Assembly (NCBI GenBank): GCA_963692865.2
Contig: OY843592.1
Coordinates: 1,152,001-1,216,000 of the forward strand
Direction of reading: 5' to 3'
Source: a bacterium
Lineage (GTDB): Bacteria; UBA8248
Length of the DNA stretch: 64,000 bases
Shown piece by piece: positions 5,252 through 11,320 of the stretch; positions within the stretch are counted from its first letter, which is position 1; every line of letters starts with the position of its first letter. The notes beneath the pieces were generated by a model. That model searched no databases. It was not told where the DNA came from and was given only the letters and a program-made list of their open reading frames with translations. A program made the position numbers and the translations under genes.

Positions 5252-5545
5252 TCACGCCGGTTGCGGCTCGTAGCGATCTACCTCGATTTCATCCTCGCGC
5301 TCCAGCGCCCGCGCGATGTCGTAGGCCGACTGAAGGCGTATCCAGGTCTCCGTCGTCGAGCCGAAGGCCTTGGCGAGTCGTATCGCCATCTCGCTCGACA
5401 TCCGCGCTCGCCCGTTCACCAGGTTCGAGAGCGCCTGGCGGCTGACGCCCAGCGCCTTGGCGCCTTCGGTCACGCTCAAGCCCAGCGGCTCCAGACACGA
5501 GACGCGCACGACCTTGCCGGGATGCGGCGGATTCTTCATGGGCAT
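5252..5545 (-). CDS. higA: HigA-family antitoxin (HTH addiction module antidote)
   Basis: PPHPG..., [34 protein letters not shown]. Confidence 0.92.
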
Positions 5546-5563
5546 GGTGGGCCCCTCCTTGGT

Positions 5564-5842
5564 TCAGTGATAGTCGATGAGTTCAACGTCGTAGACGTCC
5601 TCGCCTTCGAAGCGGAAAATGATGCGCCAGTTCGCGTTCACGGTGACCGACCAATAGCCTCTCCATTCGCCCTTTAGTTGGTGGAGCCGATAGTAGGGCA
5701 TTCGCAATGCCTCCGGCGACAAGGCGACATCGAGTTGGGCCAGAATCACCTCCACTCGTTCCCGCAGGTCGGGATGGATGCGGCTGGGGTCGCCGCGTTG
5801 GTATAAGCGTCTGAGGCCGCGATGCCGAAAACTCTTTATCAT
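5564..5842 (-). CDS. higB: HigB-family (RelE superfamily) toxin
   Basis: MIKSFRHRGL..., LHQLKG...YWSVTVNANWRIIFRF...VELIDYH; toxin upstream of antitoxin; true start ATG 5842 rather than track start 5986. Confidence 0.92.
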   Translation of the reverse strand: MIKSFRHRGLRRLYQRGDPSRIHPDLRERVEVILAQLDVALSPEALRMPYYRLHQLKGEWRGYWSVTVNANWRIIFRFEGEDVYDVELIDYH

Positions 5843-5976
5843 CCGTGAAATGTAATGTGTCAATCGACGCTTGTCAACCGCGTATCCGAGCCGGAGCATC
5901 CTTCGCCCGGTTTCGGGAGGAGCGGCCTGTCTTACAGGTTGGAGGAGAGCACGTAGACTTGGCGCCTGCGCGCCGC

Positions 5977-6008
5977 AAATGCGCACCCCGGTTCATTGAC
6001 GAATCCAT
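5977..6008 (+). repeat. 32-bp direct repeat, copy 2
   Basis: Identical to 5051-5082. Confidence 0.9.
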
Positions 6009-6066
6009 GAGTGTGGGATGATGGCCGGGTTTGATGCGAGTGATTGTTTCCGGCGTAATGAGGCGC

Positions 6067-6162
6067 ATGATGGTTGAGTACGACAATTATCGGATGTCTC
6101 TCAAGCGTCTCGAGGAGCAATACGAAAATTACATCGAACTCGACGAGGCGTTGCCCCGATAA
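6067..6162 (+). pseudogene. Truncated N-terminus of a probable HEPN (HI0074-like nucleotidyltransferase substrate-binding) gene
   Basis: Short ORF MMVEYDNYRMSLKRLEEQYENYIELDEALPR* with GAGG upstream; resembles N-termini of that family from memory; overlaps the helicase 3' end. Confidence 0.4.
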
Positions 6163-9100
6163 GCCGTCGCCGAGGCGGCTGCCTGAGCAAAAGGCTTGCC
6201 GTTTGATTGTTCTTTCGAGTTATCGCGGGTGTATTTGCACGTGGGATAATTCGAGCATCCTATAAAAGGGCCGTATCGACCGTTTTTTGCCTCTAGCGAG
6301 CCGTCGCATTCGGGGCAGGCCTCGATGAACTTGCCGCACTCTCGGCAGCGGAAGGCTTCGGCCGCCTTGACTGGTAATCCCTTCCCGCAAACCGGACATG
6401 GCTGCTGTGTATGCCTGCAATGAGGGTAGTTCGAACAGCCGTAGAAGATGCCGCCGTTCTGTCTGTTTTGGCGTTGCTCGATCCGTCCCTCGATACATGC
6501 CGGGCAGGGGACGTCGTAATGCGGCATCCAGCCGAAGACGGTGACGTCGTATTCCCCGTCGAACAGCTCCATGTCAAAGGGAGAAGTCGGACCGCCCTCG
6601 GCAAGAAGAAAGACGCGGCGTCTGGCGCGGGTGATGGCGACGTAGAACAGGCGCCGCTCCTCGGCATTCGGGTAATCTTCGGGCACAGAGAGAACCAGAT
6701 CGAGCAACGGGTCGTCTTCGATCTCAGTGGGGAAGCCGTACCTCCCCGAACACAGGTCGAGCAGCACGACGTAATCCGCTTCGCGTCCCTTGGCGCTGTG
6801 CACGGTTTTGTAGGATATCCCGAGTCCGGCATACTTCCTTGCCAGAGCAGATATGTTCTGCGGCTTCGTGTGTTTGTAGCGGCCCAACAACAGCACGCTC
6901 GATTTCCCCTCAAACTTCGCGGCGTCCTCTGTGATCTTGTCTAGCGCCTCATTCAACAGGGGAAGTCCTTGCTCGCCGGAAAGACCTACATGGACGCACG
7001 GCCTGTCCGCCCGGTGCACCGAACCGACCCTCTTGGATATCTGCGCAGGGTTGCGCAGAACGAATTCGGTGGCGACGGAGGCGATGCGGTCGGCGCAGCG
7101 GAAGGTCGTCTCCAGAGGGATGCGTTCACAGTCGCCGAAGTGCTCTATGAACTCCCGCATGATTCCGATGTCCGAGCCTGTGAAGCGGTATATCGCCTGC
7201 CAGTCATCCCCGACGGCGAACAGCCGGGCGCCCGGCGACTTCTCCAAAAGCGCCTTCAACAACCTTGCCCTGCCCTGCGAGATGTCCTGGAACTCATCAA
7301 CCAGGATGTAACCGAAAGGGCTGCTATAGCGGCCGGTTTCCACATGCTCCGTCGCTCTGTCAATCATGTCGTGGAAGTCGATCTCTTCTGATCGGGAGAG
7401 AGTTTCCTCGTAGCGCTCGAAGGCCGGCTGGAACAGGGTGAGGAAGGCTTCGGCCCGCAAGCGGTCCGGATGGTCGGCGGCTTGCCGGGCGACTTCCGGG
7501 AAACTCAGCCATGCGCCCTTGAAGTGCTCGAGAAAGGTCGCCAGCAGACGCATGAACGGATTGATTCGTCCCTGCCGATTCAGCATGGCGAAGACCTCGT
7601 CACGGGGAATGGGGGACAAGGTTACGCCGTAGGCGAGTAGCCTCCCGGCCAGATTTTCGGTCAATCTACCGGCGGCGCGCTCATAGCTGAAGGTCTCGAT
7701 CAAGATAGTGCCGTGTTCGGCGTGGGTCCGGCGTTTCCACGCCATCGATTCGAGATACTCTTTCTGCGGAACGAACGGAGCGGTCTTCCCCTCGATGTCG
7801 ATCCCGAAAGGCTCGATACAGATACCTTCTTGCAGTTTCTCCCTAAGTTTCGTTTTTTCGATCTCGATCCCCAAGTGCTCAATGTAGATACCGGCTTCGG
7901 TCAGATAGAAATCCGGCCTGTACGGCCCCTTCTCCGGCGTAGCCGTGTCGTGCTCATACTTGCGTTCGTACTCGTAGGGCACGCCGTTGAGGTAGAGGAA
8001 GTTGGCGATCTCACATTCCTCGTAGCTGGGAACCTTCTCGCCCTTGAGCGAGCGGATCTCATGCCGCCGAATATAGTCCCGGTACTCACTATAGCTCTCG
8101 AATTCGTGCTCGCTCCTGTAGGGCGCGAACTGAGACTGAAACCATTTCAGCAAATCTTCATAGTATTTTTGTTCCGCAGCCAAGTCAGTGACGATGGTCT
8201 TGAGCAGGTCGAGTAGCGCCTTTTCGTCTTCAGCGGCCTTGGCCAAGCCCGGGCGCCTGCCTTCGGCTTCACCGATGATCTTCATACCCAGGCCGTGGAA
8301 CGTCCTGACGGTCATGTCGGCCGCCGCTTCGTCGCTGAGACGCTTGCGGATCCGTTCTTCCATCTCTTTCTGCGCGTCTTTAGCGAACGCCAGGAGCAGC
8401 AATTCCGAGGGACGCCGGTAGCCTCTATGGAGAAGCCAGCCTGCCTTGGCCACGATCACAGAGGTCTTGCCGCTGCCGGCAGCGGCGACCACCAGATTCC
8501 GGTCATCGTCTACGACGACCGCCCGGCGCTGCTCCTCGGTAAGTGGCCGATCCTCGATCCGGTCGAAGAACTCCCGCAACCGGAACATTTCATTTTCGAC
8601 GAAAGCTTTGTTCGCTTTCTCCCGTATAGGCTCTGGGTCTTTTAGAAAATCCTGTATCCTTTTCAGCAGCCGGATTTCCGGAGCATTCGACAGCACCTTC
8701 GGCCAGCGCTCCGCGAATTGATCCGCCGCCTTCTTTGCGTTGCGCCTCAGTTTACGGAAGACGCTGCGCGCCATGTACTCTGGCGGACTCACAAGTTGTA
8801 GCAGGCGCTCATCTACCGAATGGAGAGCCGCGATCTCTTCCACCAGCGTCCTGCGCCACCAATGGATTCTGTTGGTCTCCAATACTTCGACGAACGCCCA
8901 AGCGTCGTCCTGCGTCAGCCCCGACACGGTTGCGCGCCCTGTCGAATGATGGAAGTGGATGCCGCACCAGCGTAGCCCGATTTCAACTTTGGCCGACACG
9001 ATGTCCTCAATAGGAATTTCCGTGTATCGGGACCCGTGCATTGGTTTCAGGGAGTTCGCGCTCACGAATGCAGCCTTGGCGTCTCGTGGTCGCAAGACCG

Positions 9101-9635
9101 CGAACAGGAAAGAAGCTAGTCCGGTTCGTTCGACCCTGAAACGACCTGCGGCCTCTGAGGCATTCATGGGTCCGGCTTCTCGACCGGAGCGGAGGGTTTG
9201 GTCCCGGTCACGTCCAAAAACGCTTCGACCTCGCTGCGGAAGGCCAGCCCCAGAGGTTTTTCTTGACCCAAGAGATATCACGTAAGTGACGATTCTCGTG
9301 AGAAGGGACGCCCCAATGCCGAATATGGAAGTCAGAAACGCCGTTTTCAGACCGGCGAGAAGCGGCGGAACGCTGCTTTCTATATCATTGGCGTCAAAGT
9401 CTTTCAGGCCGAGAGCGATACCGATGAACGTTCCGAGAATTCCGAGAACGGTCGTCGCCGATTGCGAAAATCTGAGGGCGTTTCTTTTCCAGAAAGCGAA
9501 TACGAGGCAGATTGCGAAACATGCGAGTATCACCACGCAAAAGACTTGCGTTAGCCGTTCGGGATCGCTTGCGGGAGAAACGACGGGTTGAAAAAGGGCG
9601 TATAGAGACGAAAAAACAGGGCGCAGATAGTCCAC
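6129..9635 (-). CDS. UvrD/helicase IV-like SF1 helicase with N-terminal MotA/ZorA-like transmembrane segment, internal nuclease-like insert and C-terminal topoisomerase-type C4 zinc ribbons
   Basis: AAAGSGKT, LVDEFQD, VGDDWQAIYRF, TVHSAKGREAD, EERRLFYVAITRAR; C-terminal CP.C...FYGCSNYP.C repeats; N-terminal LGILGTFIGI..GL..FD...LLAGLKTAFLTSIFG. Confidence 0.85.
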   Translation of the reverse strand: MDYLRPVFSSLYALFQPVVSPASDPERLTQVFCVVILACFAICLVFAFWKRNALRFSQSATTVLGILGTFIGIALGLKDFDANDIESSVPPLLAGLKTAFLTSIFGIGASLLTRIVTYVISLGSRKTSGAGLPQRGRSVFGRDRDQTLRSGREAGPMNASEAAGRFRVERTGLASFLFAVLRPRDAKAAFVSANSLKPMHGSRYTEIPIEDIVSAKVEIGLRWCGIHFHHSTGRATVSGLTQDDAWAFVEVLETNRIHWWRRTLVEEIAALHSVDERLLQLVSPPEYMARSVFRKLRRNAKKAADQFAERWPKVLSNAPEIRLLKRIQDFLKDPEPIREKANKAFVENEMFRLREFFDRIEDRPLTEEQRRAVVVDDDRNLVVAAAGSGKTSVIVAKAGWLLHRGYRRPSELLLLAFAKDAQKEMEERIRKRLSDEAAADMTVRTFHGLGMKIIGEAEGRRPGLAKAAEDEKALLDLLKTIVTDLAAEQKYYEDLLKWFQSQFAPYRSEHEFESYSEYRDYIRRHEIRSLKGEKVPSYEECEIANFLYLNGVPYEYERKYEHDTATPEKGPYRPDFYLTEAGIYIEHLGIEIEKTKLREKLQEGICIEPFGIDIEGKTAPFVPQKEYLESMAWKRRTHAEHGTILIETFSYERAAGRLTENLAGRLLAYGVTLSPIPRDEVFAMLNRQGRINPFMRLLATFLEHFKGAWLSFPEVARQAADHPDRLRAEAFLTLFQPAFERYEETLSRSEEIDFHDMIDRATEHVETGRYSSPFGYILVDEFQDISQGRARLLKALLEKSPGARLFAVGDDWQAIYRFTGSDIGIMREFIEHFGDCERIPLETTFRCADRIASVATEFVLRNPAQISKRVGSVHRADRPCVHVGLSGEQGLPLLNEALDKITEDAAKFEGKSSVLLLGRYKHTKPQNISALARKYAGLGISYKTVHSAKGREADYVVLLDLCSGRYGFPTEIEDDPLLDLVLSVPEDYPNAEERRLFYVAITRARRRVFLLAEGGPTSPFDMELFDGEYDVTVFGWMPHYDVPCPACIEGRIEQRQNRQNGGIFYGCSNYPHCRHTQQPCPVCGKGLPVKAAEAFRCRECGKFIEACPECDGSLEAKNGRYGPFIGCSNYPTCKYTRDNSKEQSNGKPFAQAAASATAYRGNASSSSM

Positions 9636-9749
9636 GGGGGTTGGGTCCTCAGTGGTTCCTCGGTTTTCAAGACAACCGCTCTATGCTAGCACCCGCGCCG
9701 GGGGTTTGTCGATTTTTTCCGGTTCTCGTTTTTCACGCCCATGCGGTTA

Positions 9750-10056
9750 GGGGTTGTTGAAAAAGTTCCTCGATGCGGGAAAACCACCGTCATTCCGGCG
9801 AAAGCCGGAATCCATTTTATGATTTTTGCTTTCGTTTTCGCATTTGATTCCGACTCGCGGGTGGGCGCGCCGCGCACGAATCCGGAACGGATGAGGTGGA
9901 TATATATGGGGGCGTCCGTATCTTCCCCGGCCGGGAGCGAGGACGTCCGGACAAAAGGCCAAAGACAAAGGTGAAAATGAATCCCGGCTGAAGGCCGGAA
10001 TGACGAGCAAAGGCGAAGGTCAATACCAAGCAAAGCGAGGGTTTTTCAACACCCCC
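9750..10056. mobile_element. MITE-like element with GGGGTTGTTGAAAAA termini carrying GTCATTCCGGC-type palindromes
   Basis: Inverted termini at 9750 and 10042-10056; flanks GGTTA/GGATA (4/5 match); its left ~65 bp recur inverted at ~16596-16660. Confidence 0.7.
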
Positions 10057-10327
10057 GGATATGTCGTGTTCGTGGCGGGGGAGGGAGGTGGGGTGCAGGA
10101 TTGCTCCACCAGGACGGTGTGTTGCTCCGTCGGCATAGCAAGAAGCCGCGACCGTATTTTCTCATCAAAATTCAGGGGAATGCTATATTAAAGGCGCATC
10201 GTCTCTAAAAGACCAATTCTTTTGGGCTCAAGACTCCAAATTAAGCCGATGCCGCAATTTGGCGGTTATAAGCTGCGCGAATCGCTTTTTCGAGTTCTTT
10301 CTCGAGACGTTCCATGGAGCCGAAAAT

Positions 10328-11320
10328 CTAAAAAAGCGCGCCTTGCGCGTTCGCAGCGGCGGCGATTGCCGTATCCGGGCCGATGTCGGGCAGGTCGCTC
10401 TCGAAAGGGTGTCCGTTTTGCCATCCGGTCTGCCCCGTGGAGCGAAATCGTTCAAGACGCCGAATCGTAATTTCCGCATAGACCGGGTCGACGTCCATGG
10501 TGAAACACTTTCGGTCGAGAATTTCACTCGCGAGCAGGGTTGTTCCCGAGTGCGCGAAAAAATCGACCACCAGATCATCGGGCGATGAACTGGCCCGAAC
10601 AATTCTGTCGATACATTTGATGGGCTTTTGGGCGTAACACCCGGAGACGTTCTCCTGCATCCGATAAAATATCTGTTGAATATCGACCCAGACGTTACCC
10701 GCCCTGATTGTATCGGACCGGCTTCTCTCCAGGTTTTCCGTTCTCTTGCCGTTCACTTTCTTGTAATATCCGCGCAGGATTTTGGGAATGTCCGTATATT
10801 CTGCATCGACCCAAAAATCAGGGTTTCCTTTCGTGTAATAGAGCAACTCCTGCCGAACCGCCATCCAGTTCTTTTGCGTGCCGTATCCCCGTTGGTTTCT
10901 CATCGTGATCATGCTTCTTGAGCGAAAAGGTTGTTCTCGCATCATGAGCGCGAAATCGGGCAATGGTTGGAAACCGTTGTTCTGGTCGGCTCCGAGCCAG
11001 ACGTAAAGCGATGAATCCGGGGCCATGGAATAATGTGAGTGAGACACCCATTTTCGGCACCATTCGATGAATTCCGTTACTTCCTTTTGCTCGAACGCGG
11101 CGAGATTGTAAGGCGGATCATGAATCGCCAGTTTCGCCCGCTCTCCGTCCATGATGCTCCGGGTGTCTTCGCCGCTGGAGGCGTCGAGACACCCGACTCG
11201 ATGGCCTCGCGCGTCGTCGATCCATATCTCTCCCGGCCGAAGGCGGCAATACGGCAGTAACTTGTTTCGCAGTTCAGGCGATGCGTCCAGTCTCGGGAGA
11301 GGGTTGTTTTTCATGGTCAC
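10328..11320 (-). CDS. Site-specific DNA methyltransferase (N6-A/N4-C, beta class), orphan
   Basis: DPPY catalytic motif precedes QKP and DFFAHSGTT SAM-binding motif. Confidence 0.9.
   Translation of the reverse strand: MTMKNNPLPRLDASPELRNKLLPYCRLRPGEIWIDDARGHRVGCLDASSGEDTRSIMDGERAKLAIHDPPYNLAAFEQKEVTEFIEWCRKWVSHSHYSMAPDSSLYVWLGADQNNGFQPLPDFALMMREQPFRSRSMITMRNQRGYGTQKNWMAVRQELLYYTKGNPDFWVDAEYTDIPKILRGYYKKVNGKRTENLERSRSDTIRAGNVWVDIQQIFYRMQENVSGCYAQKPIKCIDRIVRASSSPDDLVVDFFAHSGTTLLASEILDRKCFTMDVDPVYAEITIRRLERFRSTGQTGWQNGHPFESDLPDIGPDTAIAAAANAQGALF

Follow-up and report, generated by a model that had tools for sequence, protein, structure and literature searches.

How is an open reading frame (ORF) to be read that joins the membrane domain of a Zorya anti-phage system to a helicase-nuclease: as a single-chain defence enzyme, or as a by-product of gene turnover? 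The question is raised by a locus in a bacterium of the lineage UBA8248 (assembly GCA_963692865.2, contig OY843592.1, positions 1,152,001 to 1,216,000; this whole stretch of 64,000 nucleotides is referred to as the window), and both readings had been offered by a prediction made from the sequence alone (the original prediction). We consider it most likely, with a probability of about 70%, that the locus is the scar of a cassette replacement at a defence hotspot and that the fusion is accidental. The parts of the ORF, their reading frames, a series of alleles in relatives and the discordance between helicase and host divergence are observed directly. The parts are, in window coordinates:

9257 to 9635, minus strand: 5' stub of a Zorya type II zorA, codons 1 to about 127, with three transmembrane (TM) helices and filter residues T69 and S103, the cytoplasmic tail being missing
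9173 to 9256, minus strand: scar, a regulator-gene fragment (C-terminal, HTH_17/excisionase-like) of an integrative and conjugative element (ICE)-like element, off its own frame
6129 to 9167, minus strand: helicase IV-like superfamily 1 (SF1) helicase-nuclease, Met157 to the end, 1012 aa, by NCBIfam PRK11054 and predicted structure
7593 to 8135, minus strand: insert with a PD-(D/E)xK/Vsr-like nuclease fold, by fold match, with E540, D575 and E586 conserved
6222 to 6506, minus strand: C-terminal topoisomerase-type zinc ribbons, Pfam PF01396, E 2.6e-20, two stretches

The ORF runs uninterrupted from 9635 to 6129 on the minus strand (1168 aa, GTG start, no internal stops). The frame joining membrane segment and helicase is thus open throughout as originally described, both quoted motifs are found in it, and the ATG at 9167 that had been named as a possible helicase start is Met157. 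A single-base indel or a chimera in the assembly could have produced such an open frame, given an A5 run at the junction, a T5 run within the scar and relatives that are unfused at the same junction. Against this, single contigs from three sequencing runs (X1 to X3; depth 6, 48 and 26) match positions 7983 to 9797 exactly, with no differences and no gaps, the runs being three samples of one study and possibly the source of the assembly itself, and the order of stub, scar and helicase recurs in further genomes and in data from a second study. As the junction is reproduced exactly by contigs of three runs, we rejected an assembly error, which is almost certainly not the explanation. The chimeric ORF is real and lineage-restricted.

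Judged by its sequence matches, the N-terminus is specifically a ZorA of Zorya type II. It matches the PADLOC ZorA2 profile (E 6e-27) and the solved ZorA II structure 8VVI (E 2.9e-9), the membrane domain spans residues ~25 to 125 of the fused protein, and the ZorA profile matches stop at residue 117 to 127. The three hydrophobic helices predicted in the first ~120 residues appear as hydropathy maxima (19-residue windows) of 2.98 at 31-49 and 1.83 at 59-77, with a weaker one of 1.4-1.5 at ~91-121, and T69 and S103 align with T147 and S184 of EcZorA as counted from the 8VVI-search alignment. For the originally proposed MotA/TolQ/ExbB family, Pfam MotA_ExbB (PF01618) reaches 21.7 bits over about half of the model, just below its gathering cut-off of 22.9. 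The idea of a recruited helicase does not fit type II, whose known effector is the HNH nickase ZorE. The stub shares 96-97 of 106 residues with the tail-bearing ZorA proteins P0195 and P0196. Its usual partners are missing: there is no zorB nearby or, as originally noted, anywhere in the window, and the genome (97% complete) contains two distant matches to the ZorB2 profile, at profile positions 64-225 only, both of which read as OmpA-like proteins by eye. As a control, zorB is present at 55 of 59 zorA loci having room downstream. No zorE is linked, the sole HNH match in the genome being unlinked and 50 positions long, and the genome has neither a second zorA nor a donor helicase elsewhere.

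The segment originally taken for a low-complexity protein linker turned out to be an out-of-frame fragment of a mobile-element gene. ZorA homology ceases near codon 127. The 84 nt that follow match a stretch of a regulator gene at ~80% identity; the genus has several copies of this gene, which apparently lie in ICE-like elements, a putative label drawn from neighbouring pilin-, ParB- and repressor-like ORFs. The scar's own reading frame ends at a TGA overlapping the helicase ATG. Compared in that frame with its closest homolog, 3 of 22 residues differ and 9 of 12 base changes lie on third positions, a pattern that speaks against conservation as a protein linker. The fusion frame contains no stops in any of nine intact regulator homologs, and its openness therefore needs no selection. 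With divergence that fits the scar's own frame and a fusion frame that is always open, the "linker" is an off-frame reading.

For the remainder of the protein, profiles and fold confirm the full SF1 helicase, nuclease and zinc ribbon of the original prediction. PRK11054 is the best family by far (483.9 bits, under the equivalog cut-off of 543), the SF1 UvrD/Rep helicase motifs and fold are both present, and an AlphaFold model of residues 157-1168 has a mean pLDDT (predicted local distance difference test) of 90.3 and matches the Rep/UvrD fold at Z 35.3. In the model, the insert has a restriction-like PD-(D/E)xK nuclease fold, closest to the catalytic domain of I-Bth0305I (Z 9.9, root-mean-square deviation 2.5, 97 aligned) and then Vsr (Z 7.8), and catalysis is predicted; the acidic residues are retained in 78/79 (E540), 78/79 (D575) and 79/79 (E586) aligned rows. 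The nuclease identity comes from the fold search because sequence searches gave no identification: nothing was found in Pfam, NCBIfam or PDB, only unnamed atlas clusters, and PADLOC returned only partial PDC-S68/S69 and PD-DExK matches. Foldseek alone gave no match at E<=0.001. The 150 listed representatives of the helicase family, at 37-81% identity, have the same architecture over residues 157-1138, and the gene context suggests that the helicase-nuclease probably works on its own, in defence or DNA processing. A 22-residue insertion with low pLDDT in the nuclease domain (fusion residues ~590-611, window ~7800-7870, minus strand) is common to P0010 and P0192 and missing in every other aligned homolog.

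Relatives show what else the site can hold. Among 22 genomes of the genus, a full zorA (484-658 aa) with zorB and zorE occupies the same site in G019, G001, G009, G015 and G007, and G013 has an intact zorABE where its sister G002 has stub and helicase (the three genes being profile-confirmed in G013 and G019 only); G010 carries a frameshifted zorABE copy at another site. In the rpoB tree, whose midpoint root serves for drawing only, the five intact-site genomes make up one side (100/100), and stub and helicase are scattered over G000 (this genome), G002, G008 and G011. In other species the site holds type II restriction-modification (RM) genes, HEPN-MNT pairs or nothing. Zorya II was presumably there first, the tree not being formally rooted. 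A T run close to the start of the G013 zorA (L026:14550-14620) is one base short, and the G010 zorA, zorB and zorE (L025:9275-11826) appear frameshift-split, in each case through decay or assembly error.

Five stub-plus-helicase alleles are known as DNA, and the two parts are fused only in G000. Counted from the helicase start, the stop of the stub frame lies at -14 in G008, at +10 in G002 and at +1 in G011, where an insertion sequence precedes it. Contig X5, from another study, is about 96.7% identical (115 differences over ~3.5 kb) and has a 1-nt deletion at 9201, by which its stub, if read with the G000 letters, would be shifted into the frame ending at the TGA over the helicase ATG. In six more clusters of stub proteins (103-119 aa) the C-terminus is read in the frame proper to the scar; these are linked to the helicase by their shared tail and, in two, by contigs of equal size. 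The third frame, which at the short junction would stay open for 158 nt into the helicase, is seen in no allele. Left out of the allele count were G021 (contig ends within the helicase), P0192 (910/931 residues identical, called from residue 237, protein record only), P0197 (a truncated ZorA with a different tail) and P0183-P0190 (distant fragments). The junction frames across alleles are suggestive of translational coupling. The fused form did not recur in 23 and 4 database matches, 150 helicase representatives, 80 metagenomic zorA loci or the 50 other genomes of the class (51 including this one), in word-based searches that may overlook distant fused forms. With no recurrence and a linker that is not conserved as protein, the first of the two original readings, a single-chain membrane-anchored defence enzyme, loses ground. 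The second, in which a helicase with its own ATG became attached to a zorA remnant by chance, is supported, and its origin can be traced.

Stub divergence tracks the host and helicase divergence does not. Between G002 and G011, synonymous divergence (dS) is 0.29 for rpoB, 0.27 for the stub (34 codons) and 0.078 for the helicase; between G000 and G008 the respective values are 0.29, 0.37 and 0.65. The G002 stub groups with the intact zorA of G013 at 93/94, just below the tool's support mark; a tree of the zorA 5'-end coding region had none of its eight branches marked as supported and was not used. Five alleles (G002, G011, P0180, P0181 and P0182) have damaged stubs that are cut short, carry an insertion sequence or lack TM3, and the helicases of G002 and G011 are open despite this damage. 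Tail-bearing ZorA alleles exist at 95-101 of 106 identity to the undamaged stubs. The simplest account of these sequences is that each stub belonged to a functional zorA up to the arrival of the cassette, or is refreshed from such a gene.

The ORF lies between a toxin-antitoxin module and a methyltransferase, as originally stated, and the following features surround it:

5252 to 5842, minus strand: HigBA toxin-antitoxin pair, higA being a conserved flank of the variable cassette
5975 to 6178, plus strand: 5' remnant of a HEPN-type (PF08780) gene, 74% identical to a longer gene at the site in G022
9683 to 9712, minus strand: promoter-like site TCGACA-18-TAGCAT upstream of zorA (4 sites against 2.6 by chance, weak alone)
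9750 to 10060, strand not assigned: dispersed ~310-bp repeat with hairpins, upstream of the promoter and outside the fusion
10328 to 11320, minus strand: N6/N4 DNA methyltransferase, missing at this site in G002, G008 and G011

Cassette turnover at defence hotspots can leave gene stubs. Here, the ancestral site would have held zorA-zorB-zorE as in the relatives, and a helicase-nuclease cassette preceded by the scrap of a regulator gene would have replaced everything beyond the ZorA membrane domain; given the junction sequences, which are observed, recombination may have used the 5' end of zorA and higA as homology arms. The cassette would move between lineages and the zorA 5' end would remain with the host chromosome, supplying the helicase with a promoter, a ribosome-binding site and a translated leader. 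Because the stub frame ends within 14 nt of the helicase start in the unfused alleles, the stub probably supplies promoter and translation, and similar promoter-like sequences are found upstream of the stubs in G002, G008 and G011 and of the intact zorA of G013. Two frames would be workable, read-through as in G000 or a stop beside the helicase start as in every other allele seen, which would make the fusion one tolerated outcome, readily lost. The product, if made, would be a helicase-nuclease tethered to the membrane; having neither ZorB nor the tail, it would lack motor function. Alternatively, the long ORF may be nominal, the helicase starting alone at ATG 9167 and the stub being barely translated. 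A start codon at this position is common to G002, G008 and G011, and residues 157-1168 were modelled as a complete fold unit. However, ATG 9167 has a weak Shine-Dalgarno match (-3.0 kcal/mol predicted, compared with -5.6 for GTG 9635 and -11.7 for higA, using what we take to be the anti-Shine-Dalgarno sequence), and all readable unfused junctions end the stub frame beside the start, as coupling predicts, which leaves independent initiation rather improbable.

Several observations weigh against an accidental fusion by cassette replacement. The G000 stub is undamaged, with a ratio of nonsynonymous to synonymous divergence (dN/dS) of 0.14-0.17 versus G008, G010 and G013, close to the 0.19-0.23 of intact zorA pairs, and five of eight aligned stubs have no change at any of 32 invariant ZorA columns despite 3-13% divergence. 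Such conservation requires the stubs to be recently derived from, or repeatedly exchanged with, intact zorA, and gene conversion reaching up to the junction is putative only. The alleles share ancestry, representing perhaps three to five events, and since they are related and few, their frame bias is only suggestive of coupling. The junction here is 112 nt longer than the short junction type and may be the older one, and the fusion itself might then be old. Lastly, 12 of the 150 helicase representatives natively start with a single hydrophobic helix, so membrane anchoring may suit this family.

The retained columns and native helices also favour a domesticated mini-ZorA, a membrane domain devoid of tail and ZorB and selected as anchor or partner of the helicase-nuclease, the two being coupled genes in relatives and a single chain here. 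In its favour too are the persistence of T69 and S103 and a 114-aa stub found with an identical C-terminus in three 90% clusters. It would keep the nuclease at the membrane, the entry point of phage DNA, in place of ZorAB recruitment, a tentative role for which there is a parallel in the recruitment of ZorE to the membrane during infection (PMC11890865). The five damaged stub alleles, the paralogous helicases without a stub in G011, G014, G015 and G032, the loss of the frame in X5, the closest strain, stub divergence that parallels host rather than helicase, and the absence of the fusion from the sets searched beyond this genus argue against it, and we regard such domestication as unlikely. 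It is similarly doubtful that Zorya was reduced to its membrane domain and reused with a new helicase-nuclease effector, active without ZorB, tail or ion flow; were this so, the locus would be a snapshot of a new defence system arising by domain shuffling.

The fused ORF shares with Zorya type II the ZorA membrane domain with its filter Thr and Ser, and complete Zorya II systems occupy the site in relatives, but here an SF1 helicase unrelated to Zorya II follows the domain, and with no tail, zorB or zorE the ORF is not a member of Zorya II. According to published work, the ZorA tail and the peptidoglycan domain of ZorB are required for type I and II defence (PMC11890865) and whole-tail deletion abolished type I motor assembly (PMC11946911); the fused domain should therefore not act as a Zorya sensor. 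Druantia is described as able to recruit ZorE without ZorAB (PMC13192584), and ARMADA II, with a UvrD-like ArmD, and Druantia III as co-occurring with Zorya II (10.1101/2025.09.22.677730). DNA helicase IV-like UvrD helicases with a nuclease insert and zf-C4 Topo I ribbons have the architecture of residues 157-1138, but none of the 150 representatives has a ZorA domain, and the fused protein falls below the PRK11054 cut-off. ZorD of Zorya I, DruE of Druantia, ArmD of ARMADA II and GajB of Gabija are likewise helicase or helicase-nuclease genes of defence islands, for which the literature covered reports no ZorA fusion; ZorD and DruE are SF2-type, unlike the SF1 helicase here. GajB profiles match only ~90-150 residues per stretch of the fused protein and no GajA adjoins, the flanks being HigBA and the methyltransferase. 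As in hotspot turnover generally, the site alternates by species between Zorya II, the helicase, type II RM and HEPN-MNT, but the stub here is predicted to stay translated and reads into the new cargo in one allele. No published description of a ZorA-helicase fusion was found, judged mostly by titles and the start of abstracts, and supplementary gene tables could list some; nor was a functional test of this helicase IV-nuclease subfamily found in the literature.

The locus is thus most likely an unusually well-resolved case of defence-gene turnover, in which incoming cargo would destroy a gene and be expressed from that gene's promoter and translation start, sometimes yielding a chimera that annotation could mistake for a new system. 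ZorA fusions should accordingly not be called from one genome. The natural series of intact Zorya II, coupled stub and fused stub is suited to testing whether membrane tethering by itself can substitute for ZorAB recruitment, and the helicase IV-nuclease family is a widespread defence candidate. Its 12 single-helix representatives (P0046, P0060, P0105, P0118, P0129, P0131, P0136, P0158, P0160, P0166, P0172 and P0173) may form a membrane-anchored subfamily. Two of the paralogous helicases, L033:12629-15913 (G014) and L035:10031-13276 (G011), have a duplicated N-terminal domain; a tyrosine integrase is also encoded in L033, and a type IIG RM-like gene, by a weak match, in L035.

Gene order also varies among Zorya II loci elsewhere: in L145, L181, L193 and L194, either zorA and zorB are separated by a zorE-like gene, or a short zorA match lies downstream of zorB. 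In L038:1-828 (G023:C383) a frame of 276 codons, cut by the contig end, begins with another ZorA-like N-terminus, and its C-terminal half looks unrelated. At the other end of the fused ORF, the helicase C-terminus runs antisense across the HEPN remnant; G022, G014 and G006 have a longer form of this HEPN-type gene here, and in G022 a scan gave its MNT partner. Genome matches of at least 200 nt to the ~310-bp repeat number 10 of 55, itself included, and as contig X5 skips this repeat, its insertion here is recent.

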